A DNA stretch of 43,374 nucleotides from a virus (Duplodnaviria > Caudoviricetes), in IMG/VR virus record IMGVR_UViG_3300037470_000442, positions 1-43,374 of that record; one strand, written 5' to 3'. Positions within the stretch are counted from its first letter, which is position 1, and each line of letters opens with the position of its first letter. Below, one piece after another: positions 13,463 to 40,890 of this stretch. The notes beneath the pieces were generated by a model that did not search any database, was not told the origin of the DNA, and was given only the letters and a program-made list of their open reading frames with translations. Position numbers and translations under genes: made by a program.

Positions 13463-14062
13463 GTGATTTGTGAGCCTCCAATCAAGAGGGGTCTACGTCG
13501 CGGACAATCTGGTACAGGAACTCACGCAGGATGGTTGAGACATCGTAGGGCGGGCGAACCACCCTGCGATGCTTGTCGTCAAGCCGTGAATGCCTATAAC
13601 CGGGAGTGGGCGACCCGAAACCCCGGACGGAAGGCAATCTACAGCCGCGCTTGGTACGAGAAGGATCGCGACAACCACTCTCGGCGAGCTCGAGAGTGGA
13701 AGCGAGCCAATCCGGACAAGGTAGCCGAGCAGAATCGTCGTTGGCGGGTAGAGAACGCTGCTTGGGAAAGAGAGCGTGGTCGCATATGGCGCGCACAGAA
13801 CCCAGACAAGGTTGCAGAGGCAGCACGTCGACGGCGAGCCAGACAACGAGTCGCACTTCAAGTGCCCTTTAGCGCGGAGCAGTTACGTGCCCGGATGGCC
13901 TTCTGGGGCGACCGCTGTTGGATGTGTGCGGGCGATGCCGACACGGTGGACCACGTGATTCCGCTCTCTCTTGGCGGCCCCCACTGTCTGAGCAATCTGC
14001 GACCGGCGTGCCGTAGTTGCAATTCTTCTAAAGGCGCGAAGCCACTAGCGCAAGTCGGTTAG
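13463..14062 (+). CDS. HNH endonuclease, paralog 1 of 4
   Basis: CWMC..DHVIPLSLGG.H..SNLRPACRSCN..KG; N-terminal RH.RAGEPPC..C. Confidence 0.9.
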   Translation: MICEPPIKRGLRRGQSGTGTHAGWLRHRRAGEPPCDACRQAVNAYNREWATRNPGRKAIYSRAWYEKDRDNHSRRAREWKRANPDKVAEQNRRWRVENAAWERERGRIWRAQNPDKVAEAARRRRARQRVALQVPFSAEQLRARMAFWGDRCWMCAGDADTVDHVIPLSLGGPHCLSNLRPACRSCNSSKGAKPLAQVG

Positions 14063-14303: not shown

Positions 14304-14519
14304 ATGAGCGTGCCTGAAGGTATTTACGCGCGTATCCCTCTGGGTGAAGTCACTCTGGCGGAGGCGGTCAACGTGGTCGAAGACCCTTTCTTCTGGTATG
14401 ACACGATGCCGCCTGTCCTCTTCCACTTTTCCATTGCTGACTATTGGGGTTTGACGGTGGGAGACCATCGGCGTCTGGTCGACTTTCTGATCGGTCGAGG
14501 GCTGGTCGATGGCGACTGA
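14304..14519 (+). CDS. Hypothetical protein at tail assembly chaperone position
   Basis: 71-aa ORF before TMP; YWGLTV motif. Confidence 0.55.
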   Translation: MSVPEGIYARIPLGEVTLAEAVNVVEDPFFWYDTMPPVLFHFSIADYWGLTVGDHRRLVDFLIGRGLVDGD

Positions 14520-15207
14520 CGCGATCTGTGCACGCCCAGCTAAGACCGGCAGGAACGCCGGGCAGCCCGCTACCGGGACGCCAGGCGGATATGCGAGACA
14601 CTATCGCGCTGGTGAGCCAGCCTGCTCGGCGTGTCTTGCTGCGCACAATGCGCAGAGTCTGGCTTGGGTTGAGGCTAACCCCGAGAAGCGATCCGAAATC
14701 GAGCGTCGGTGGTATGAGAAGCACCGGGAGCAGGCGCTCACTTGTGCGTTGCGTTTTCGCGAGGCCAACCCGCATTATCAAAAGCAGTGGTACAAGGACA
14801 ACAGAGAACGGAAACAGGCCGTATCTCGAGAGTGGGTCCGAGCCAATCGGGATCAGGTTCTGGAGTACCAGCGCCAGTGGCGCAAGGACAACCCGGATTT
14901 GGTTGCCGAGACGTACAGGAGGTGGCGGCAGGGCAATCCTGAGAAGGTTGCCGAGTTTGCCCGTCGGAGACGTGCCCGAGTTCACGCGGCATCCATAGTC
15001 CCCTTCACCGCAGAGCAGCTCAACCAGCGGATGGCCTACTGGGGTTTCAAGTGTTGGATGTGCAGCGGGCCGTTCGAAGCTGTCGACCACGTGAAGCCTC
15101 TTGCGAAGGGCGGTCCGCACGTGCTTGCAAATCTGCGTCCGGCATGTAACCCCTGCAACCGGCGCAAGTCGGCCCGCTGGGACGGCGTGGAAGGTTTGGC
15201 CTCCTGA
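14509..15207 (+). CDS. HNH endonuclease, paralog 2 of 4
   Basis: CWMC..DHVKPLAKGGPH.LANLRPAC..CN. Confidence 0.9.
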   Translation: MATDAICARPAKTGRNAGQPATGTPGGYARHYRAGEPACSACLAAHNAQSLAWVEANPEKRSEIERRWYEKHREQALTCALRFREANPHYQKQWYKDNRERKQAVSREWVRANRDQVLEYQRQWRKDNPDLVAETYRRWRQGNPEKVAEFARRRRARVHAASIVPFTAEQLNQRMAYWGFKCWMCSGPFEAVDHVKPLAKGGPHVLANLRPACNPCNRRKSARWDGVEGLAS

Positions 15208-18534: not shown

Positions 18535-18595
18535 AGTGGTGACTGCCGCCGACCTGAACGTTTACCTGGCTTCGGCACTTGCGGAGGAGGAGTAA
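18518..18595 (+). pseudogene. 25-aa remnant resembling N-terminus of the downstream tail protein
   Basis: MVWTTEVVTAADLN vs MAWTAP..TWVTAEVVTAALLN at 19151. Confidence 0.6.
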
Positions 18596-19149
18596 TGGCG
18601 TGGACAGCTAGAGACATTGAGCTCGCCTGGGCTGCGGGGTTCTTCGACGGTGAAGGTTCGATCGGTGCCGTTCGCGACAACAAGAACGGCCGGCGGATTT
18701 CCATTCAGATGAGTGTCGCCCAGTCGGGTTCCGACGATGCGCCGCCCGCATCGCTCGAACGCTTCCATCGTGCTGTAGAAGTGGGGAAGATTTACAAGCG
18801 AGCCCCTGAAGACGGGCGCCTGGGAAGCAAGCCAATGTGGTATTGGCGCGCGTCGAACGTAGATGACACAAAGACGGCCATACGGCTGCTCCGGCCCTTC
18901 GTCATTGAAAAGCTGGATCAGATTGCTGAGGCTGCCGCGCTCCGATCTGAATGGGAAGGCTTGTACGCCGACCGCCAGTTGTTCTGCAAGCGCGGGCACG
19001 AGTTCACACCAGATAACACTTACACCTATGAAAACCGGAATTCTCGGCCGCGTCTTTGTCGAACGTGCAATGCCGAGAACACCCGGCGCTCCAGGCTTCG
19101 CCGCAGAAACCTGAGCCTCCTGACAGCGGCAGAAGGGCAGGGTGGTTGA
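18595..19149 (+). CDS. Single-motif LAGLIDADG endonuclease with C-terminal Zn-finger
   Basis: WAAGFFDGEGSI; CKRGHEFTPDNT..CRTC. Confidence 0.88.
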   Translation: MAWTARDIELAWAAGFFDGEGSIGAVRDNKNGRRISIQMSVAQSGSDDAPPASLERFHRAVEVGKIYKRAPEDGRLGSKPMWYWRASNVDDTKTAIRLLRPFVIEKLDQIAEAAALRSEWEGLYADRQLFCKRGHEFTPDNTYTYENRNSRPRLCRTCNAENTRRSRLRRRNLSLLTAAEGQGG

Positions 19150-19800: not shown

Positions 19801-19983
19801 CTGAAAAGACCCCCCACCCGAAAAAGGTGAGGGGTCTGGTAATCCGGATGGGGGTGGATTGGTCCGGTCAATGTTGTCTTGCGAATCGCGTTCGACAGGA
19901 GCGCCAGTTACCACCTCCTTCGGCACGTTCGGAGGGTCTTCGGCGCCTCCTAGTAGTGCGAGCAGTAAGAGCAGGATGATCAC
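19759..19983 (-). CDS. Possible small exported protein
   Basis: GTG overlaps RHH stop; hydrophobic N-terminus; but runs through the terminator into the tail gene. Confidence 0.3.
   Translation of the reverse strand: MIILLLLLALLGGAEDPPNVPKEVVTGAPVERDSQDNIDRTNPPPSGLPDPSPFSGGGSFQLERNGDDVRIGKR
19804..19837 (-). terminator. Intrinsic terminator, possibly bidirectional
   Basis: AGACCCC..GGGGTCT hairpin with an A run on the left (U tract on minus strand). Confidence 0.55.
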
Positions 19984-20114
19984 TGTTGCTCCTTGTCCTT
20001 CGCTTCTTGAATCAGTCGAACCAGATAGTCCTGCAACGACATTCCGGCTTCCGCGGCTCGTACTTTGAGCCACCGGTGCAGGTCGTTGGGGAGTGTCTGC
20101 CTGATCTGTCCCAT
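19980..20114 (-). CDS. Ribbon-helix-helix (Arc/FitA-like) regulator
   Basis: LPNDLHRWLKVRAAEAGMSLQDYL. Confidence 0.8.
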   Translation of the reverse strand: MGQIRQTLPNDLHRWLKVRAAEAGMSLQDYLVRLIQEAKDKEQQ

Positions 20115-22766: not shown

Positions 22767-22875
22767 GCGGACAAATCTGTCCACTTATCCAAGCTTGGCG
22801 GACAAATCTGTCCACTTATCCAAGCTTGGCGGACAAATCTGTCCACTTATCCAAGCTTGGCGGACAAATCTGTCC
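22767..22875. repeat. Perfect 31-bp tandem repeat, 3.5 copies
   Basis: GCGGACAAATCTGTCCACTTATCCAAGCTTG at 22767, 22798, 22829, partial at 22860. Confidence 0.95.
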
Positions 22876-27329: not shown

Positions 27330-27856
27330 ACCGAGAGGCATTGTGGGCTCTGATACGGAGGACCGCCGATACTCTCGAGTTCGGGGAGCAACCGGTCCTG
27401 GACCTTCCCTCCACCGTGGAAGAGTTGGACGAACTGCGTGCGTTTCTCGCTCCTATCGGCCAGGCCGTCCGTCTCATCGCCGCTCTGTCGTTGGAGGGCA
27501 TGCAACCGTCGTTGGGCTCGAGAGGTTTCGCCAAATTCGGTGAGCGTGTGTATCGGGCGGCTCCTGAGTCGAAGTGGAAACTCCGCGAGGAACGCGCATC
27601 CGAGTTTTGGGAGTGGGTCAACTCCGAAGACGCAGCACGGAGACTCTTTAACCCTAATTCGGCTCGGATTACCGGCCTTAGAGATTTGGGCGACCACTGG
27701 CACAACAGAGAGACGGGTGAGGTCGGTTTCGCAGCGTTCGAAGACTATTTCATGGACGTCGAAACCGGCGCCGTGAAAGTGTCTGAGATGCCTTTGTCGC
27801 GGGCGACCCAGGCTATCCAAAAGGCCGACGACGGGACGGTCGTGAAGCGTGACTGA
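27326..27856 (+). CDS. Hypothetical protein (recombination module)
   Basis: Coupled ORF preceding the Sak-like gene. Confidence 0.65.
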   Translation: MNREALWALIRRTADTLEFGEQPVLDLPSTVEELDELRAFLAPIGQAVRLIAALSLEGMQPSLGSRGFAKFGERVYRAAPESKWKLREERASEFWEWVNSEDAARRLFNPNSARITGLRDLGDHWHNRETGEVGFAAFEDYFMDVETGAVKVSEMPLSRATQAIQKADDGTVVKRD

Positions 27857-28313
27857 CCTTCGCTCTCTCGCAGAGCCCTTCCCTTCGAAGCTCGTGAAGG
27901 CTCCGCCTCAGGGCAAGTTCGGCTCGTACGTGTCTCATTCGACGGTCAACGAACGTGCCCTGTCGATCGTCGGACCGTTCTCCTTCGAAATTGTCGAGGT
28001 GATTCGTGGTCACGCTGACGAGGTCATCGTGAAGAAGGGGAAGTCGGGTGAGAGAGTGTTTCCGGCTCGGGAGGCGATTGTCGGCTGTCTCGCCCGTCTG
28101 ACCGTGACGATAGACGGCCGTGAGACCGTGATTACTGAGGCTGGCGACGTGGAGGGGGCGGCGGCGCAGGAGGACGGGGCGAACCTGAAAGAAGCCTCCG
28201 CAGACGCCTTCAAGAGATGTTTCATGAGGGTGGGTTTAGGTCTCCACCTGTGGTCTGGGCCGGACTATTTCCTTCCGGTCCAACTAGATAAGGCGGTGGA
28301 CGGTGACGTGTGA
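27849..28313 (+). CDS. Rad52/Sak-like single-strand annealing protein
   Basis: LAEPFP, YVSH..V.ER, KEASADAFKRC...GLGLHLW. Confidence 0.8.
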   Translation: MTDLRSLAEPFPSKLVKAPPQGKFGSYVSHSTVNERALSIVGPFSFEIVEVIRGHADEVIVKKGKSGERVFPAREAIVGCLARLTVTIDGRETVITEAGDVEGAAAQEDGANLKEASADAFKRCFMRVGLGLHLWSGPDYFLPVQLDKAVDGDV

Positions 28314-28881
28314 GGCGCCGATCACTAAGGGTCCCAAGAAGGGCCTTGCGGCTACGGGGACGCTGACTGGGCACAACAGGCACTATCGAGCTGGCGAACC
28401 GTCGTGTGGTCCCTGCATGGAAGCAATGGTGTCCTATCAGAGGGACTGGTATGGGTCGAACGCAGAGACCGTAAACGAGAGGGCACGTCTCTGGGAGAAG
28501 GCCAACCCGGAAAAGGTCTCCGAGAAGAACCGTCGCTGCTACGAAGACAATCGACGGAAGCGAGCCGAGGACTTCAAGCGATGGGCCGCAGCTAACCCCG
28601 GCTACAAGCGCAGGCAATACGCGGCCAACCCAGGAACCTACGCCGAAATAGGTCGACGTAGGCGCGCCCGTAAAGCGAGTGTCCTCACTGTCCCCTTCAC
28701 TGCGGCCCAGCTAGCCCAGCGTATGGCCTATTGGGGCGACCGTTGTTGGATGTGCTCTGGCCAGTACGACGAGGTCGACCACGTCATACCCATCGCCCTG
28801 GGTGGCCCCCACTGCCTGTCGAACCTCCGTCCGGCATGTCGCTCGTGCAACGCGTCCAAGGGTGCGAGGCGGGCGTCGTGA
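28303..28881 (+). CDS. HNH endonuclease, paralog 3 of 4
   Basis: CWMC..DHVIPIALGGPHCLSNLRPACRSCN.SKG. Confidence 0.9.
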   Translation: MTCEAPITKGPKKGLAATGTLTGHNRHYRAGEPSCGPCMEAMVSYQRDWYGSNAETVNERARLWEKANPEKVSEKNRRCYEDNRRKRAEDFKRWAAANPGYKRRQYAANPGTYAEIGRRRRARKASVLTVPFTAAQLAQRMAYWGDRCWMCSGQYDEVDHVIPIALGGPHCLSNLRPACRSCNASKGARRAS

Positions 28882-28967
28882 CGGGTTTGGGTCTGCACTT
28901 GTGGTCTCAGGGCGACTATTTCCTGGCGAAACAGTTGGACGCTGACGCGGCGAAGGACCACGCGTGA
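28878..28967 (+). pseudogene. Second copy of Sak-like C-terminus as a 29-codon mini-ORF
   Basis: GLGLHLWSQGDYFLAKQLD vs GLGLHLWSGPDYFLPVQLD. Confidence 0.8.
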
Positions 28968-29143
28968 AGTTCGCACGCAGCAAAGACGGCGCCGTCGTCC
29001 ACCAGGCAACTTGTCGGCACGCCCGTATCCCCTGGAACTGGGCTGACGACAAGCCGTCGTGGGCCGTCGTCGGCTTTGTGGAACGGGCTTCGTGGTTGCG
29101 CCTTTGCCGGGTCTGTTTCTCCGACCAGGAGACTCACGAATGA
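28964..29143 (+). CDS. Small Cys/His protein (59 aa, not in ORF track)
   Basis: VHQATC..CRVC; AAGGA RBS; coupled both sides. Confidence 0.55.
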   Translation: MKFARSKDGAVVHQATCRHARIPWNWADDKPSWAVVGFVERASWLRLCRVCFSDQETHE

Positions 29144-29526
29144 TTCTCTCGGAGGCTGCTGCCGAGGTTCGCCGCCTTTCCGGATTGCTGGATGCTGGTT
29201 TGGAGATTCTCCGTTCGTCCGCCGAAGACGTGGCACTAGCCGAGCAGGCTTACCGGAAGGCCAGAGCGCAAGCGTGGGTGGAGAACACGGAGGGGACTGC
29301 GGGGTTCCGTGAATCTCAAGTAGACGGTCAGACCGCGGGACTCCGGTATAAGCGGGACGTGGCGGAGGGCATGCGACGGGCCGCTCTCGAGAGTGTCCGT
29401 GCTCGTACTACTCAGATTTCGGCGGTTCAGAGCCTCTTAAACGCGCACCGTGCCGAAGCGAATTTCGTCCGGTCGGGTCCTGACTCGTATCAGGAGAACA
29501 GTCATGTTCGAAGGTTTGAAAGTTGA
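29140..29526 (+). CDS. Coiled-coil protein, possibly a recombination mediator
   Basis: AGGAG RBS; all-helical; function is inference. Confidence 0.6.
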   Translation: MILSEAAAEVRRLSGLLDAGLEILRSSAEDVALAEQAYRKARAQAWVENTEGTAGFRESQVDGQTAGLRYKRDVAEGMRRAALESVRARTTQISAVQSLLNAHRAEANFVRSGPDSYQENSHVRRFES

Positions 29527-29891
29527 AGCGGACAACCTCGAAACGGACCTGTTCTATCGACACGTGCAGTGGTGTTCACAGCGCTTTCGGGTATTGCCGG
29601 CCGCACTATCGGCGTATGCGGAAGTACGGCGACCCTCTTGCGGGTACTCCCCCGCGGACTCGGAGACTTTCCCCCCGGATTCTCGACGTGTTGGAAACGG
29701 ATGGTGGATGGTTGACGGCTGAGGGGATAGCTCTGCAATTGGGGGATGGGATTGTCGCAGTTCAAGTGTCTGATGCTCTCTACGACAAGATTTACGACCG
29801 GGTGGAACGGCGGACTATAGGACTGGCTTCGGGTGCCGCGCGGGGTCCGTCCGGCTTCGAGGAGCGGGCCGAATGGCGAGTGAAACCGTGA
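29523..29891 (+). CDS. Zn-finger + winged-helix-like protein, paralog A
   Basis: CSIDTC..GYC..HY; ILDVLETDGGWLT. Confidence 0.65.
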   Translation: MKRTTSKRTCSIDTCSGVHSAFGYCRPHYRRMRKYGDPLAGTPPRTRRLSPRILDVLETDGGWLTAEGIALQLGDGIVAVQVSDALYDKIYDRVERRTIGLASGAARGPSGFEERAEWRVKP

Positions 29892-30244
29892 CCTGCACTC
29901 ACTCTGACCGTCCGGCCGTGGGTCGAGGATTGTGCGGGTCTTGCTACGGCCGGTGGAGGCGCGGCACGACGCCTGCGCCCGTTGGTCGTCGGTTGAACAG
30001 GAACGGCAACCCAGCGCTGATCTTCGATGTATTGGAAACGGATGGCGGATGGCTGACCATTGAAGGAATCGCTCTTGCTCTCCCGTCGATGAAACGCGTG
30101 ACCTTGGAACGGGCATTGTTTCGGCTTCGCGACCGGGGCCTGGTCGTGTCTCGTCGGATGCTTCTGACCACGACGGAATCTCGGTGGGCGAGTATCACAA
30201 CACGGGATGGGGAAGTGTTCCGGACTGAATGGCGGGTCTTCTGA
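29888..30244 (+). CDS. Zn-finger + winged-helix-like protein, paralog B
   Basis: GRGLCGSCY; IFDVLETDGGWLT; ALFRLRDRGLV. Confidence 0.65.
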   Translation: MTCTHSDRPAVGRGLCGSCYGRWRRGTTPAPVGRRLNRNGNPALIFDVLETDGGWLTIEGIALALPSMKRVTLERALFRLRDRGLVVSRRMLLTTTESRWASITTRDGEVFRTEWRVF

Positions 30245-30477
30245 TGTGGCGGGCTCAGGCGGCTTGTCTTGATGTGGACCCTCGCATCTTCCACGACAAG
30301 ACCACGGTGGCCGAAGCGATCGCTGTGTGCAACACCTGCGATTGGTGGGTCGAATGCGCCTTCCTTCGGCAACAGGTCGAGTTTCAGGTGGGTGCTCCTG
30401 CCGTCGGGGTGTGGGGCGGGGTCTTGTGGCTTAAAGACGGCAGTTCGTTGAAGGCGAAAGCGGGCAGCGTCGTATGA
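30244..30477 (+). CDS. whiB: WhiB family transcription factor
   Basis: WR..AAC, C-x2-C-x5-C, GVWGG. Confidence 0.85.
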   Translation: MWRAQAACLDVDPRIFHDKTTVAEAIAVCNTCDWWVECAFLRQQVEFQVGAPAVGVWGGVLWLKDGSSLKAKAGSVV

Positions 30478-32522
30478 GCAAACTCCGCTTGCGTCCACCG
30501 CTGATCACCTTCGAAAGAGTGCGTCTGTCGGCGTTCATCATCGGCTACATCATCCTCGCCGAATCCACCGACCCCCGACCCTATTCGACAACAGCAATGG
30601 CACGGATCATGTACGGCCTGCTCGTCGTGGAAATCGCCCGCCAGTATTGGACATGGCGACTCGAAGTCTCCAAGGGTGCTGTCCTACGTCAAGCGGACTG
30701 GCGGTCCCGCGCCGACGAATGGAAAAGCCGGTTCTCGACGAACGCCCGCTTCCGTATCCGACGGACCCTCACCATTCTCGCCGGACTCTACTTGACGGGA
30801 CTGTTGCTCAATCAGTTCACCGACCGTTGTAACAGCGCAACTCAGTGTGTCATGCTCGCTCCGAGGATGGTCGTCGAACAGATCCCGACGATGCTCCAAG
30901 TCGCCCTCGTCATCGCATTGTCGCTGTTTCAAATGGCAGCCATGTTTTGGGCAATGGTCAAAGTTGGTTTCGTCAAATTCGTATATCCGGGGACGATCCT
31001 CGAATCGTTTGATGACGTGTGGGGTCAGGACGAGGCGAAGGCGAAGATGATGGAGCAGGTCGCCCTCCTCGAGAACGAGTCGACCTTGACGAAGAAGGGC
31101 GGCTATCTCCCGAAGGGTGTGCTCCTCCACGGTCCTCCAGGAACCGGAAAAACGCTCCTGGCGAAAGCCGTGGCGAACGCTTCGACCAAGCCTCTGATCC
31201 TGGTTCCTCCCGGTGCGTTCCAGGCGACGTTCGTGGGAATCAACATTCTGAAAGTGCATGTGCTGTTCCGGTCGATCCGGAAACTGGCAATGCGGTATCA
31301 GGGGGTCATAGTCTTCATCGACGAAATAGACTCTCTCGGGCATCGAGGCGGCGAGGTCAGCGGGATGTCCTCGTGGACGTCCTTCTTCCGTCGGGAACAG
31401 TACGAATTGATCCCTGAGCCTGTTGACGACGGGATCGCATCCTGCACCCGAGCGTCAGCACCAGCGACGGCGTCTCCCCATCCGATCATCGTGACGGGTG
31501 GCGGTCAGATGGGCACTCTCGAATCGTTCCTGTCCGGCATGGACGGCATGGCCGAACCCCGAGGTCTCCTGAACAAGGTCTTGTCGCTGCTCGGATTCAA
31601 GCCGCTTCCACCACCCGAATACCAGTACATGATCATCGGCGCAACAAACCGTCCGAAGGCTATCGACCCTGCGTTGAAGCGGGCTGGCCGGCTTGGACGA
31701 CTCATCTATGTCGGACGGCCAAATTTTGAAGGGAAGCGATGGACTTACAGGGGCTACCTGGCGAAAGTCTCCCACTCGCTCACCGACGCTGATATCGATT
31801 GGGCAGCTCGGAATCATTACAAGGGAACGGGAGCTGAGATCCGTGACATTGTCAACGAAGCGCTCCTGCGGAACATGCGTAATGGTGGGGATGGGACGCT
31901 CGGCCGGGAGGACTTGCAGGCGTCGATGATCGCCGTCAGGTTCGGCGAGTCGGATGGTCTCGCAGAATTGGAGGAGATCCGCCGGGACGTGGCCGTCCAC
32001 GAGGCTGGTCATGCGGTCGTCTTCCACCATCTCTGTCGGGATCGGATGGATATCTGGTTCGCGTCGATTGAGAAGCGTGGAGACACGGGGGGGATGGTGG
32101 CTCCGTCTCCGCATACGGACGACTGGCAGGAACGCCACCGAGAGATGATGGCGGACATTTGCGTGTCGCAGGGGTCGCGGGTCGCCGAACTGCTCATTCT
32201 TGGGGAGGCGTCGAACGGTCATGGTGGCGACGGTCCACATGCGACACAGGTAGCGGAGAAGGTCATCTACTGCGGTCACACGTTCACTGTTGACGACAAG
32301 GGGCGTCCGCAAGGGCAGCTCTCGTCGTATGGGTCGGAACGTGACCCCGAGGAGCTGCACAAACTGAGAGAACAAGTGCTAGCGGAGGCCTGGCAGGAGA
32401 CGTGGACGCTTCTCGAATCCCGCCAGGACCAGATCGAAGCGATTGCGAATCTGCTCGTCGAACACGGCACTTTGAGCGGCGATGTCATCCACCGGACTCT
32501 CGAAGGCATGGAGGCCGCATGA
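30474..32522 (+). CDS. FtsH-like membrane AAA+ metalloprotease
   Basis: N-terminal TM helices, GPPGTGKT, FVG pore loop, IDEID, ATNRP..IDPALKRAGR, HEAGH. Confidence 0.9.
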   Translation: MSKLRLRPPLITFERVRLSAFIIGYIILAESTDPRPYSTTAMARIMYGLLVVEIARQYWTWRLEVSKGAVLRQADWRSRADEWKSRFSTNARFRIRRTLTILAGLYLTGLLLNQFTDRCNSATQCVMLAPRMVVEQIPTMLQVALVIALSLFQMAAMFWAMVKVGFVKFVYPGTILESFDDVWGQDEAKAKMMEQVALLENESTLTKKGGYLPKGVLLHGPPGTGKTLLAKAVANASTKPLILVPPGAFQATFVGINILKVHVLFRSIRKLAMRYQGVIVFIDEIDSLGHRGGEVSGMSSWTSFFRREQYELIPEPVDDGIASCTRASAPATASPHPIIVTGGGQMGTLESFLSGMDGMAEPRGLLNKVLSLLGFKPLPPPEYQYMIIGATNRPKAIDPALKRAGRLGRLIYVGRPNFEGKRWTYRGYLAKVSHSLTDADIDWAARNHYKGTGAEIRDIVNEALLRNMRNGGDGTLGREDLQASMIAVRFGESDGLAELEEIRRDVAVHEAGHAVVFHHLCRDRMDIWFASIEKRGDTGGMVAPSPHTDDWQERHREMMADICVSQGSRVAELLILGEASNGHGGDGPHATQVAEKVIYCGHTFTVDDKGRPQGQLSSYGSERDPEELHKLREQVLAEAWQETWTLLESRQDQIEAIANLLVEHGTLSGDVIHRTLEGMEAA

Positions 32523-33010: not shown

Positions 33011-33390
33011 GCGTCGAAACGAAGGACATTCTGTTCAAGGCAGCGGAGGACGTACAGCAAGGCATGTGGTGTAAGGGCAGTTGGTTCCACCTTGATGGGA
33101 TGCATTGGGCCAACCCCTTCACCCTGATTGAAGGGGGGGACAACGTAGAGCGAGCAACGGCGTCGGAGAGATGCGCCGAAGGTTCCATCGCTCTCGCCAC
33201 TCGTCTGCTGGGTGGGACAAACGCCGATTTCGAGAAGGCTCGCTACAAGGTCGAAACGCAAATCTCATGTGAAGGACACGCAGGTCGGGCCACTCTCGCC
33301 GAGCACAACGACTACTGCCTTGGCGACGACCCGTTCGAGGCGGGCCAGCAACTAGCGGAGCTCTTCCGCGCGACAGCGGAGGCGCTCTGA
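33007..33390 (+). CDS. Hypothetical protein (DUF6197-like)
   Basis: KAA..WCKG..CAEGSI..HND..LFRATA pattern. Confidence 0.65.
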   Translation: MSVETKDILFKAAEDVQQGMWCKGSWFHLDGMHWANPFTLIEGGDNVERATASERCAEGSIALATRLLGGTNADFEKARYKVETQISCEGHAGRATLAEHNDYCLGDDPFEAGQQLAELFRATAEAL

Positions 33391-34367
33391 TGCTCCAGTC
33401 CTACGGCTTTGAAATCCTCGTTCAGCCTGCTCTCTATGTCGCCGCACTGATCGGAGTGCTGGTGGTCTTGTTGAAAGGCTTCCACCGTGAACCCACCGAG
33501 ATTGACGGGGTGGCTCGGAAGGGACGCAGGGTGTTGGCGGAGGGTGCGAAACGGCGTGCACTCATCGGAGTAGCCGCGGCGGTGGTCATTCTCCCTGCAT
33601 TGGTTATTACCCCTCCCGGGCATAGGGCGGCGATTTACAGCGTGTCCGGGGGTGTCTCCCCCATCGAACGGGATGAAGGTTTGAGCCTGGTGATTCCGTG
33701 GGCGCAGTCAGCGAGAATGGTGAACGTCCGGACGCAAGTGTTCGAGGTCGAGGTCTACCCCCAAAGCTTGGATCTCCAGGAAGTGACCGTGCCTGTAGCG
33801 GTCAACCATCACGTCGACCCGAATCTCGCAGCCGAGCTCTACCAGGACGTCGGTCTGCAATACCAGCAGACGGTCATCGCGCCGGCTGTCTTACAGTTGG
33901 TCACGCAGTCGGTCGGCCAGTTCGCTGCGATCGACTTCGCTCAGAACCGTGCTGCACTCGCCGAAGCGGTCTTCCAGTCTCTCGCGGCTCGCCTGTCCGA
34001 ATACGGGATTGTTGTCGAATCGGTCAACGTGAAGGACGCAGTGTTCGCGCCCGCGTTCATCCAGGCAGTCGAGTCGAAGATTATAGCCGACCAAAAGGCT
34101 GCTGAAGCAGAACGGTTAATCCAGGTCGCCGCGGCGGAGGCCGAGGCCATTCGGAAGCGGGCCGCGGGTGACCGTGACGCCTCAATCCTGAAGGCAGAGG
34201 GAGAACGCAAAGCTATCGAGCAGATCTCTGCTGCGCTCGGGTTCTCCCCGACCCAATATCTGGATTGGGTGTCCCGGTCTCGCTGGGACGGCATCTTACC
34301 CAAGACCGTCGTTGGCGACTCTGCCTCGTCCCTGATCTTCGACGTTGGGCCAGGGACAGCGGAGTGA
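33390..34367 (+). CDS. SPFH/prohibitin (band 7) protein
   Basis: TM helices, PPGHRA, SLDLQEV, AVESK..A.Q.A coiled coil, WDG.LP. Confidence 0.9.
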   Translation: MLQSYGFEILVQPALYVAALIGVLVVLLKGFHREPTEIDGVARKGRRVLAEGAKRRALIGVAAAVVILPALVITPPGHRAAIYSVSGGVSPIERDEGLSLVIPWAQSARMVNVRTQVFEVEVYPQSLDLQEVTVPVAVNHHVDPNLAAELYQDVGLQYQQTVIAPAVLQLVTQSVGQFAAIDFAQNRAALAEAVFQSLAARLSEYGIVVESVNVKDAVFAPAFIQAVESKIIADQKAAEAERLIQVAAAEAEAIRKRAAGDRDASILKAEGERKAIEQISAALGFSPTQYLDWVSRSRWDGILPKTVVGDSASSLIFDVGPGTAE

Positions 34368-34966
34368 ACGCCTGTCAGGCACCCATACGGCAGGGACCAC
34401 GGACCGGACAACCGGCCACTGGTTCCAACGCCGGATACATGCGTCATCATCGGGCGGGCGAACCGGCCTGTTCGGAGTGTCTTGCCGCAGTCACAGCCGC
34501 GGCAAGCGAACGCTACCGGGCCAATCCCGAGACGAAACGGCAACAGTCGGCCAGGCGCTACCGGGCGAACCGAGAGAAGTTAATGGCACAGACCCGACGT
34601 TGGCAGGAGGCCAACCGAGACAAGGTCAACGCCATAGCTCGCAGGTGGAGGGAAGAGCATCCCGAGGAGACTGCTGCAGCCAATCGGCGATTCCGGCAAT
34701 CCCACCCCGAAGCCGTCAGGGAAGCGTCGCGCATTCGCCGCGCTCGAAAGGCTGCTGCTCTCACCATCTCATTCACTCCGGAGCAACTTGCCGACCGCAT
34801 GGCCGTTTGGGGCAACCAGTGTTGGATGTGTGGCGGTGCTTACGAGGAAATCGATCACGTCATTCCCATCGCGCTTGGTGGACCCCACTGCCTGTCGAAC
34901 CTGAGGCCCGCGTGCCGTTCATGTAACGCGTCGAAGGGCGCTCGTCCGTTGTCGGCGATCGCATGA
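34364..34966 (+). CDS. HNH endonuclease, paralog 4 of 4
   Basis: CWMC..DHVIPIALGGPHCLSNLRPACRSCN.SKG. Confidence 0.9.
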   Translation: MNACQAPIRQGPRTGQPATGSNAGYMRHHRAGEPACSECLAAVTAAASERYRANPETKRQQSARRYRANREKLMAQTRRWQEANRDKVNAIARRWREEHPEETAAANRRFRQSHPEAVREASRIRRARKAAALTISFTPEQLADRMAVWGNQCWMCGGAYEEIDHVIPIALGGPHCLSNLRPACRSCNASKGARPLSAIA

Positions 34967-36978: not shown

Positions 36979-37202
36979 CGCAGCGTGACGTTAACCGGCG
37001 GTGTGTCGCCTGCGGCCGTCGACCCGATGAGGAGTGCTGTGTGGACTGTCATCGTGGCTTTACCTGGATTCAACCCATTTCGTTGTGTGTTGTGGATGAC
37101 TGTTCAAACCGCCACAAGGCCAGGGGCTACTGCGTCATGCACTACTCCCGGTGGAGACGGGGCCGACCCATCGACTCGCGGGAGGTTCTTGATGCCTCCT
37201 AG
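36975..37202 (+). CDS. Cys-rich protein
   Basis: CVVDDC..KARGYC..HY module. Confidence 0.6.
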   Translation: MTQRDVNRRCVACGRRPDEECCVDCHRGFTWIQPISLCVVDDCSNRHKARGYCVMHYSRWRRGRPIDSREVLDAS

Positions 37203-37560
37203 CACCCGTCCGAAGTCCCGTCCGAAGGCTGACTACATGAAACGAGCCGACAAACTCTTCTCAAAGTACGTCCGCGCTCGAGACGGCGCCTGCTTGAACT
37301 GCGGGTCGACCGAGTTCCTTCAGGCGGCGCACATCATTTCCAGGTCGTACAAATCGATCCGAGTGAACCCGGACAACTGTGTGGCCCTTTGCCGTTCTTG
37401 TCATGTCATGTTCACGCATAAGCCGCTCGAATGGGAGGCGTGGGTGGAGGCAAGGTTTCCGGGTCGATGGGACCGTCTCCGACGTCAAGCCTTGAAATAC
37501 GAGAAAGTGAATTGGAAGGCTGAGTTGGAGTCGTTGCGGACAGTCATGGAGAAGCAGTGA
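37192..37560 (+). CDS. NinG/Rap-like HNH nuclease
   Basis: ADKLFSKYVRARD, CLNCG, AHIISR, NCVALCRSCH. Confidence 0.8.
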   Translation: MPPSTRPKSRPKADYMKRADKLFSKYVRARDGACLNCGSTEFLQAAHIISRSYKSIRVNPDNCVALCRSCHVMFTHKPLEWEAWVEARFPGRWDRLRRQALKYEKVNWKAELESLRTVMEKQ

Positions 37561-39340: not shown

Positions 39341-39918
39341 GGATCAGCACAGAAGAACGGTTTCTGCGGAAAGTCGACAAGCAGGAGGACGGTTGTTGGG
39401 AGTGGGCTGCGTCGCGCAACCAGGATGGTTATGGGCTCTTCAACATGGAGGGCACCAGCAAGGCACACCGAGCCTCCTATCTTCTGTTCGTCGGGCCGAT
39501 CCCCGAAGGACTCACCATCGACCATCTCTGCCGCAACCGGGGCTGTGTCAACCCTGAGCATTTAGAGCCGGTCACGCTCAGAGAGAACGTCTTGCGCGGC
39601 CTCACCCTGGCTGCTGCCAACGCTGCCAAGTCACACTGTTACCGCGGCCACCCTCTCTACGGGGAGAACCTTCGTATCGACCAGCTCGGTAAACGCGTCT
39701 GCCGGGAGTGCCGCCGACTGATCCAATCTCCGTCTCGGGCCGACATGCCGCGTTGTGTCGTAGACGACTGCGGTAAACGAGCGCAAGCTCGCGGGCTCTG
39801 TAACGGTCACTATCACAAGCAACGTGCGGCTGGTAAATGGCAGCCTGTGGTATCTACTAATCAGTCCCATTCGGAGTCAGGTTTAGTAGTTGAGCCGGTG
39901 GTATCGGACAAGGAATGA
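39337..39918 (+). CDS. HNH endonuclease (HNH_3 type) with Zn modules
   Basis: CWEW, AHRASY, IDHLCRNRGCVNPEHLEPVT..EN, HCYRGH. Confidence 0.9.
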   Translation: MRISTEERFLRKVDKQEDGCWEWAASRNQDGYGLFNMEGTSKAHRASYLLFVGPIPEGLTIDHLCRNRGCVNPEHLEPVTLRENVLRGLTLAAANAAKSHCYRGHPLYGENLRIDQLGKRVCRECRRLIQSPSRADMPRCVVDDCGKRAQARGLCNGHYHKQRAAGKWQPVVSTNQSHSESGLVVEPVVSDKE

Positions 39919-40229
39919 CTAAGACTCTTGCGAAGTGGCTTCATGCCCGAGCGTGCGATTGGAAGATTCCCGGTCGTGCTGTGCTCCACAATGGTCTCTG
40001 GCACAAGTACGAGGGCGAGACGCCAGGCTGGGCTGAGTGCGGGACCTGGATTGCTCCAGCGTTCGTCCAGGCATGGTGCGGGAAGGGCGAGAAGCATGAC
40101 AACCCTTGGGACTCGGGTGGGTACAAGCGGGACTGGCTATGTCGTCGCTGCTTCGTCGAGGAAATCGTGATTATGGAAAACCTGCGGTCAATGTGGGTGG
40201 ATTTGGTATCGGACAAGGAGCACTCATGA
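39915..40229 (+). CDS. Hypothetical protein
   Basis: AAGGA RBS in repeat; ends VSDKEHS. Confidence 0.65.
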   Translation: MTKTLAKWLHARACDWKIPGRAVLHNGLWHKYEGETPGWAECGTWIAPAFVQAWCGKGEKHDNPWDSGGYKRDWLCRRCFVEEIVIMENLRSMWVDLVSDKEHS

Positions 40230-40618
40230 CGACGAAGCATCCGGTGTTCGCGGGCTGCAAAGGGGCCAACTGTCTCGATGGTCGTGAGGTGGTCGTCTGG
40301 GTAAATGCTGGCCTGTCTCATACGGGCGACGGCAGAGACAAGCGCATGCGAGTTGACGGGTGTATCGCCGATCTTGTGGGCGCCCTCTACCCGTTGGCAG
40401 CGTCGTCTTGTTGCGGTCATGGGCAGACGGAGGGTCGGATTCTTCTCTACGACGGTCGGGTGCTTCGGGTGTACCACGACAGATCGTCGGAGGGGGCGAT
40501 GCCAACAGGAGAGTGGGGCTACGACCGAAGCAAAGACCTGCCTGAGTACTACCCATCAGAGCATCCTGACGACTACGACGAACGAGTAGCCGCGTGGGTA
40601 TCGGACAAGGAGCAGTAA
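40226..40618 (+). CDS. Hypothetical protein
   Basis: VDGCIADLV.AL..SCCGHG motif; ends VSDKEQ. Confidence 0.7.
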   Translation: MTTKHPVFAGCKGANCLDGREVVVWVNAGLSHTGDGRDKRMRVDGCIADLVGALYPLAASSCCGHGQTEGRILLYDGRVLRVYHDRSSEGAMPTGEWGYDRSKDLPEYYPSEHPDDYDERVAAWVSDKEQ

Positions 40619-40890
40619 TGGGATATGCGAATTACTTGTACGACGGGAAACTGTGCGGATATGCCGTTCCCGATGAGTGCAACCAAGATGGCTGCGAGAC
40701 ACCAATCGACCGAGGGCTGGCCTATAGCTGCGGAAACGGTCCCGGTGAGGCCGACGACTACTGTGACGGCTATTTTTGCGGGGAGCACCTGTACTTCGTA
40801 GACCCAGAGGTTTCGGATTCTCGACAGTTGTGTGGGGCTTGTCTTGCCGATGCCGAGGTCTTGGTGGTATCGGACAAGGAGCAACAGTGA
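40618..40890 (+). CDS. Cys-rich hypothetical protein
   Basis: GYAV..C...GC...IDRGLAY.CG..C.GYFC..H; ends VSDKEQQ. Confidence 0.7.
   Translation: MGYANYLYDGKLCGYAVPDECNQDGCETPIDRGLAYSCGNGPGEADDYCDGYFCGEHLYFVDPEVSDSRQLCGACLADAEVLVVSDKEQQ

Follow-up and report, generated by a model that had tools for sequence, protein, structure and literature searches.

The sak-like gene of an uncultured tailed phage was found to contain a 651 bp insert, which supplies a substitute 3′ end for the gene and carries an HNH endonuclease gene behind it; the original gene end has been displaced downstream, where it persists as a 29-codon reading frame. The cassette (substitute sak end plus HNH gene) is quite probably a splice-free homing element, which would cut cassette-free sak near the insertion point and be copied by repair.

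Genome setting and layout of the locus

The window, that is, the whole stretch of DNA that was analysed, comprises an entire linear virus record of 43,374 bp (completeness 58 %, CheckV). Terminase, portal, major head (capsid), tape-measure and integrase genes were recognised together with a WhiB gene, a gene content that points to a temperate tailed phage, and the host is probably an actinobacterium. The features of the locus are given below; L098 is an HNH-less metagenome contig, X1–X8 are related runs, and P0041 and P0002 are listed homologues of the sak product.

27849..28229, + strand: resident 5′ body of a Sak/Rad52-family single-strand annealing protein gene, codons 1–127 (PF04098, phrog_3290, fold, L098)
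28200..28223, + strand: Ser>Ala (28200) and Trp>Phe (28221–28223), candidate cleavage-escape changes (119 listed homologues, L098, X5–X8)
28230..28880, + strand: insert, 651 bp, wholly protein-coding; 28229–28879 fits equally (1 nt G ambiguity) (joints in X6 and X8, L098 alignment)
28230..28313, + strand: substitute sak 3′ end, 27 codons plus stop (36/60 nt to L098; rare residue set)
28303..28881, + strand: HNH endonuclease gene, 192 aa, with a stop codon that straddles the right junction (PF01844)
28878..28967, + strand: displaced original sak 3′ end, 29-codon ORF (L098, 56/60 nt; ends of P0041 and P0002)
28964..29143, + strand: downstream 59 aa gene, with an orthologue directly behind sak in HNH-less L098 (tblastn, 67 %; same GTGA overlap)

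The complete sak-like ORF (27849–28313, + strand) has the C-terminal end ...RCFMRVGLGLHLWSGPDYFLPVQLDKAVDGDV. Its product matches Pfam family PF04098 (Rad52_Rad22; E 7.7e-5, 23.1 bits against a cut-off of 20.3) and phrog_3290, and its structural model (pLDDT 86.9) was matched by Foldseek to Mgm101 and RAD52 (E 3e-5 to 8e-4) and to the Sak protein of 80a (E 7.5e-3). By profile and by fold alike, the gene encodes a Sak/Rad52-family single-strand annealing protein; among cultured phages, a relative was found at 32 % only.

The HNH ORF (28303–28881, + strand) overlaps the sak ORF by 11 nt. It is followed by the 29-codon ORF (28878–28967, + strand), which starts with GTG, continues with TGLGLHLWSQGDYFLAKQLDADAAKDHA and, as the sequence-only reading of this DNA had described, overlaps both the HNH stop codon and the start of the next gene by GTGA. 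That reading had also reported the sak-like 3′ end in two copies around the HNH gene, and the repeat is real: positions 28232–28273 and 28883–28924 are 81 % identical over 42 nt at a spacing of 651, the repeat was recovered by self-blastn of the window (E 2.5e-4), and the 27 aa tail scored 78 against the rest of the window (100 shuffles: maximum 47, mean 37). Some of the differences between the copies are synonymous, as had been claimed, but not all of them: 15/19 aligned residues (G to D) are common to both, the exceptions being QG/GP and AK/PV, and there is no relation between the final residues. A 754 nt contig of run X1 covers 28164–28917 with 0 differences, and the layout is therefore not an assembly artefact, although X1 may be the source sample and so is not independent support for the assembly.

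The insertion point lies 28 codons before the sak end, and the insert consists of 27 new sak codons and a stop codon, followed by the HNH gene. Two codons form across the right junction: the stop of the HNH gene and the GTG that starts the stranded ORF. The insert length corresponds to 217 codons, the sak body and the downstream end being in the same frame; such in-frame landing has a prior of one in three. A search of 27700–29200 for a promoter and for a plus-strand terminator gave none.

Empty alleles and the original end of sak

Contig L098 is identical to the window at 49/51 nt over 28164–28214, shares ATG AGG up to 28229 and then switches to the sequence of the downstream copy. Past the insertion point it matches the downstream copy at 56/60 nt and the upstream copy at 36/60 nt, which is what the earlier reading had expected of an HNH-less relative, and it keeps the next two genes after sak. 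Insert-skipping joints were detected in contigs from 7/8 related runs (none in X5). A clean joint, 28228>28880, which skips 651 nt with one ambiguous base, was present in X6 (82 nt side) and X8 (74 nt side). The likeness threshold for a joint was 80 %, and little weight is given to joints with a side that measures 30 nt or less (one in X1, one in X3, X7). The allelic site is thus polymorphic for presence and absence of the cassette, empty alleles being given by L098 and by the joints.

Of 37 other sak loci, none has two tails or carries this HNH domain within 900 nt; 26 of the loci have at least 750 nt downstream, and several are near-duplicates, so that they represent fewer than 37 independent lineages. 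Duplication in HNH-less relatives, which the earlier reading had named as evidence that would speak against it, was thus seen at none of them. The loci, L011 included, were retrieved by DNA pattern; single-protein searches of viral contigs and alignment searches of metagenome and genome contigs gave none. Among 25 metagenome stretches, L092, L101, L104, L108 and L112 encode an unrelated protein and were dropped, and L019 and L021 duplicate L003 and L004. L093 and L111 match the N-terminal Cys/His module only, without the HNH domain.

The sak protein search gave 170 matches, 120 of which were listed; these include the window's own protein, and 119 listed homologues were therefore compared. The closest, P0002 (90 %) and P0041 (87 %), have ends nearly equal to the downstream-copy peptide, and 9 of the 10 listed homologues closest in the body have tails nearer to this copy. 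P0004 (83 % body identity) has a tail one residue nearer to the upstream copy. Over all 119, 69 tails are nearer to the downstream copy, 24 to the upstream copy and 26 are ties; judged from these tails, the signal for the downstream copy as the original end is clear only among close relatives. The L098 match, the insert-skipping joints and the absence of duplication from all 37 other sak loci identify the downstream copy as the original end of sak, now displaced. As had been proposed, the gene was interrupted by an element that carried a new 3′ end for it, and the original end was moved downstream.

The substitute tail

Over 60 nt the substitute tail matches the near relative L098 at 36 positions and the distant L003 at 44. 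Its residues V-4, G+5, P+11 and K+16 occur together in 1/119 listed homologues (P0049, 58 % body identity) and in L005; Lys+16 is the family consensus (79/119 listed homologues), whereas the resident lineage has Ala. Pro+6 and Val+12 are each found in 1/119 listed homologues. The tail likely came from a distant sak lineage and would be foreign rather than recoded in place, to judge by these residues; a search for a donor with sak followed by this HNH gene found none. Deliberate synonymous recoding of the tail was considered and rejected, the tail matching distant relatives at 34–44/60 nt, the same as their match to the old end. GC3 values (new tail 20/32, body 89/122, old end 22/28) come from a sample too small to use. 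The tail also holds an SD-like stretch for the HNH start (duplex −7.6 kcal/mol); such energies were obtained with a generic anti-SD sequence and carry little weight in DNA this rich in GC.

Substitutions upstream of the insert

At 7–30 nt before the insert, where the window otherwise hardly differs from L098, sak has two rare substitutions. The codon at 28200 encodes Ser in 119/119 listed homologues and Ala in the window, and the Phe encoded at 28221–28223 in the window occurs in 0/119. L098 has TCA and TGG at the two codons, and contigs of X5–X8 have T, the common base, at 28200. The most unusual changes of sak are thus located upstream of the insert, the new tail being no more recoded than a distant sak lineage, and because the two rarest changes sit there, resistance may lie partly outside the new tail. 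We infer that the recognition site would extend as much as 30 bp into the sequence before the insertion point, with Ala and Phe as escape changes; these substitutions could instead compensate structurally for the new tail.

The stranded end and translational coupling

The 5′ GTGA overlap of the stranded ORF is new and was formed at the junction; the 3′ overlap is ancestral and is also present in L098. The earlier claim that the displaced end maintains translational coupling is weakened by this inherited overlap and by next-gene overlaps at two HNH paralogues (see below). It is plausible that the displaced end maintains coupling by relaying ribosomes through its GTGA overlaps, but the relay is probably a tolerated by-product and not the reason for the existence of the ORF; the piece would be retained in any case, be it as debris of a recent event, as a homology arm or because the next gene starts within it. 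It does hold that start and a weak SD-like stretch. Over aligned codons it differs from L098 by five synonymous changes and one replacement, a count that does not separate selection after displacement from recent arrival. The sole amino acid difference from L098, Gly>Asp at 28957, is tied to a G>A change that gives AAGGA 6 nt before the start of the next gene, where contigs of X1–X4 have G; this single base is at most suggestive of a stronger independent ribosome site.

The HNH nuclease and its family

The HNH protein is composed of an N-terminal Cys/His module, helical Arg-rich repeats and a C-terminal CxxC-DH-N-CxxCN domain, and matches PF01844 (E 6e-10, 39.5 bits against a cut-off of 21.4). 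C148, C151, D159, H160, N174, C179, C182 and N183 (catalytic and Zn residues) are invariant in a 28-row alignment (A2), which argues for an HNH endonuclease with intact motif and Zn ligands. Its structural model has an extended helical part and, at the C-terminus, a small domain; the HNH matches that Foldseek returned for this model were all weak (E ≥ 0.5), with none at E ≤ 0.001. Four paralogues of this family occupy unrelated sites in this genome; the three additional ones are full-length and intergenic, with 40–52 % identity.

13463–14062: HNH paralogue
14509–15207: HNH paralogue
34364–34966: HNH paralogue

These three are without duplicated gene ends, and two of them overlap the next gene (ATGA at 34963; 1 nt at 15207). 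Further HNH-type genes lie at 18595–19149 and 36985–37560. The closest relatives with context, L194 (in G004, 57 %) and L195 (in G002, 50 %), are flanked by the tape-measure gene and the tail gene that follows it, and the sak gene of G002 is without HNH. The unrelated sites of the paralogues and the position of the relatives behind the tape-measure gene show that the family is mobile. Among cultured phages, relatives are under 40 % (best 15 of 103 rows).

A duplication screen of 151 HNH loci, 128 of them with enough flank, gave a genuine translated duplication here and in one other event (L156/L169). L146, L139, L116 and L153 also scored above the control maximum of 68, but their matches are low-complexity and off-frame, and they were set aside by eye. 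With one other event in 128 loci and paralogues without duplication, duplication is an occasional outcome and not a hallmark of the family. At L156 (705–2214) and L169 (1803–3285) a distant HNH relative separates an orphan 5′ piece (ca. 35 codons) from a second, complete copy whose start has diverged, a mirror-image, 5′-end version of the sak layout; from reading by eye, we take the split gene to be a glycosyltransferase gene.

The cassette was found in this genome and run X1 only and in no second genome (0/37 sak loci), in a search for other backgrounds with thin sampling and short contigs. None of the X2–X8 contigs spans the HNH body, and missing cover there does not show absence.

Other features of the window

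Two adjacent genes (29523–29891 and 29873–30244) have in common a 57 nt repeat (79 %), which encodes a DVLETDGGWLT.EGIAL domain, and differ in their N-termini. A perfect 47 nt direct repeat (22767–22813 and 22829–22875) with a shorter internal repeat is possibly an origin or regulatory site. A 682 aa membrane AAA protein (30474–32522; PHROG ATPase match) and a 325 aa protein (33390–34367; PHROG "lipoprotein" match) are also found in relative G002; reading by eye, we presume the former to be FtsH-like and the latter SPFH-like. An 18–24 nt motif, GGTATCGGACAAGGAGCA, stands ahead of several small genes (39897–40890), part of it occurring once inverted near 19990 (19980–19998), and looks like a phage regulatory or ribosome-binding motif.

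Relation to known systems

WHO elements, which are found at FBA1 in Torulaspora and Lachancea yeasts, replace the 3′ end of their target, leave the old end downstream and cut in an allele-specific manner, according to the available part of the report (PMC7282813, Coughlan et al. 2020). As there, and likewise without splicing, the nuclease gene described here is flanked by a full-length chimeric gene and by the displaced old 3′ end. The WHO element encodes an intein-like LAGLIDADG protein with a zinc finger, is nuclear, leaves fragments of ca. 400 bp, homes in meiosis and forms tandem clusters, as far as that part describes it; the sak cassette differs in its HNH nuclease, phage setting, 87 bp fragment, single copy and tight gene overlaps, and in that cutting is predicted here and was shown for WHO. 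With an HNH nuclease at sak in place of LAGLIDADG and zinc finger at FBA1, the cassette would work like a WHO element and is not itself one.

The mORF (mobile ORF) hybrids known from fungal mitochondria (Allomyces atp6; Glomus atp6, atp9, cox2 and nad3) likewise combine a foreign C-terminus with an endonuclease ORF, the native C-terminus being left downstream; in the portion of the source at hand, native ends are 91–98 % and inserted ends 64–81 % identical to relatives (PMC3630166). The corresponding values for sak are 93 % (native) and 60 % (inserted) to L098. As given there, the mORF endonucleases are organellar LAGLIDADG or GIY-YIG proteins, whereas the sak cassette has an HNH nuclease in a prokaryotic virus, a tailed phage, with translational overlaps; on this comparison it would work like the hybrids and is not a member of their group.

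Free-standing phage homing endonucleases (T4 Seg, Skunavirus HNHEs, ICP1 HEGs) insert apart from their target gene, and in the available sections of two sources the recipient's resistance is assumed to come from its acquisition of the donor allele (PMC12724721, PMC10448857). The sak HNH gene resembles them in standing free beside a conserved gene with variable presence among relatives; it differs in its position within the target gene and in the duplicate gene end left behind, a feature that those sections do not describe. A phage case of this layout was not found in the open-access literature, supplements excepted.

Proposed mechanism and alternatives

An HNH gene just behind sak in a distant phage would have been captured with its sak tail, the left side by homologous crossover in a conserved sak motif, the right side by a non-homologous join at the stop codon of the HNH gene. 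In co-infections, sak alleles that lack the cassette would then be nicked or cut by the HNH protein, with the 5′ sak body on one side and the stranded end on the other acting as homology arms for repair, as in the WHO model. Immunity would result from the split site, the foreign tail and the two upstream substitutions at otherwise fixed sak codons. The cassette likely spreads by cutting sak copies without the cassette, as WHO elements do. Rad52-like phage recombinases join short diverged sequences, which was shown for Red-beta, RecT and Erf and not for Sak in the available part of the source (PMC3945230); on that ground Sak, the product of the target gene, could itself be the agent of capture and homing.

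Relaxed recombination, perhaps by Sak, might also have pasted in a foreign sak tail with the HNH gene as a one-off mosaic accident, the nuclease being a passenger with its target at another site, or with no target, and the duplication a scar. Such an origin agrees with the presence of the cassette in a single genome, with the three HNH paralogues without duplication and with the joining of diverged sequences by Rad52-like recombinases (Red-beta, RecT and Erf, not Sak, in the same available text; PMC3945230). It leaves unexplained, however, the two substitutions found in 0/119 listed homologues 7–30 nt from the insert, in sequence with 49/51 matches, and the exact coincidence of the right boundary with the stop codon of the HNH gene; the intact HNH motif also speaks against it, and an accident is considered unlikely. 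The failure to find a donor, and the rarity of Pro+6 and Val+12 (1/119 listed homologues each), would suit an origin in which the sak end was duplicated locally in tandem, the HNH gene landed between the copies and the upstream copy diverged in place under cleavage pressure. This course is given very little credit: the new tail has Lys+16 (79/119 listed) against the resident Ala, has its four diagnostic residues in common with P0049 and L005, and is nearer to the distant L003 (44/60) than to the near L098 (36/60); since the body is still 49/51 like L098, there was too little time for in-place divergence of the tail.

The least credible account, a splicing or recoding element (group I intron, intein or ribosomal hop) that rejoins the sak body to the in-frame downstream end, draws on an insert length divisible by three, but this frame follows from the 11 nt and 4 nt overlaps and had a one-in-three prior. 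The insert is wholly protein-coding, with no room for a ribozyme; an Rfam search of it gave no match at E ≤ 1, and the HNH gene is out of frame with sak and so is not an intein, whereby intron and intein are excluded. No stop codon adjoins the take-off codon, and sak is already complete with its new tail.

Significance

The cassette illustrates how a tightly packed phage gene can be invaded by a selfish nuclease with neither intron nor intein: the nuclease brings along a spare gene end. The principle is already established in yeast and in fungal mitochondria, so the surprise is moderate and the value lies in the extension to phages and to HNH enzymes. The locus is unusually testable, with an empty site defined to within one base, natural empty alleles and two candidate codons. 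It is possible, though doubtful, that it represents a phage class of splice-free homing, the counterpart of WHO, in which an HNH cassette sits in a recombinase that can copy it, an escape change is forced at a fixed sak position (119/119 listed homologues) and a translated spacer relicensed by GTGA keeps the operon coupled. The target gene becomes a chimera of two lineages, and the process may drive change at conserved residues.
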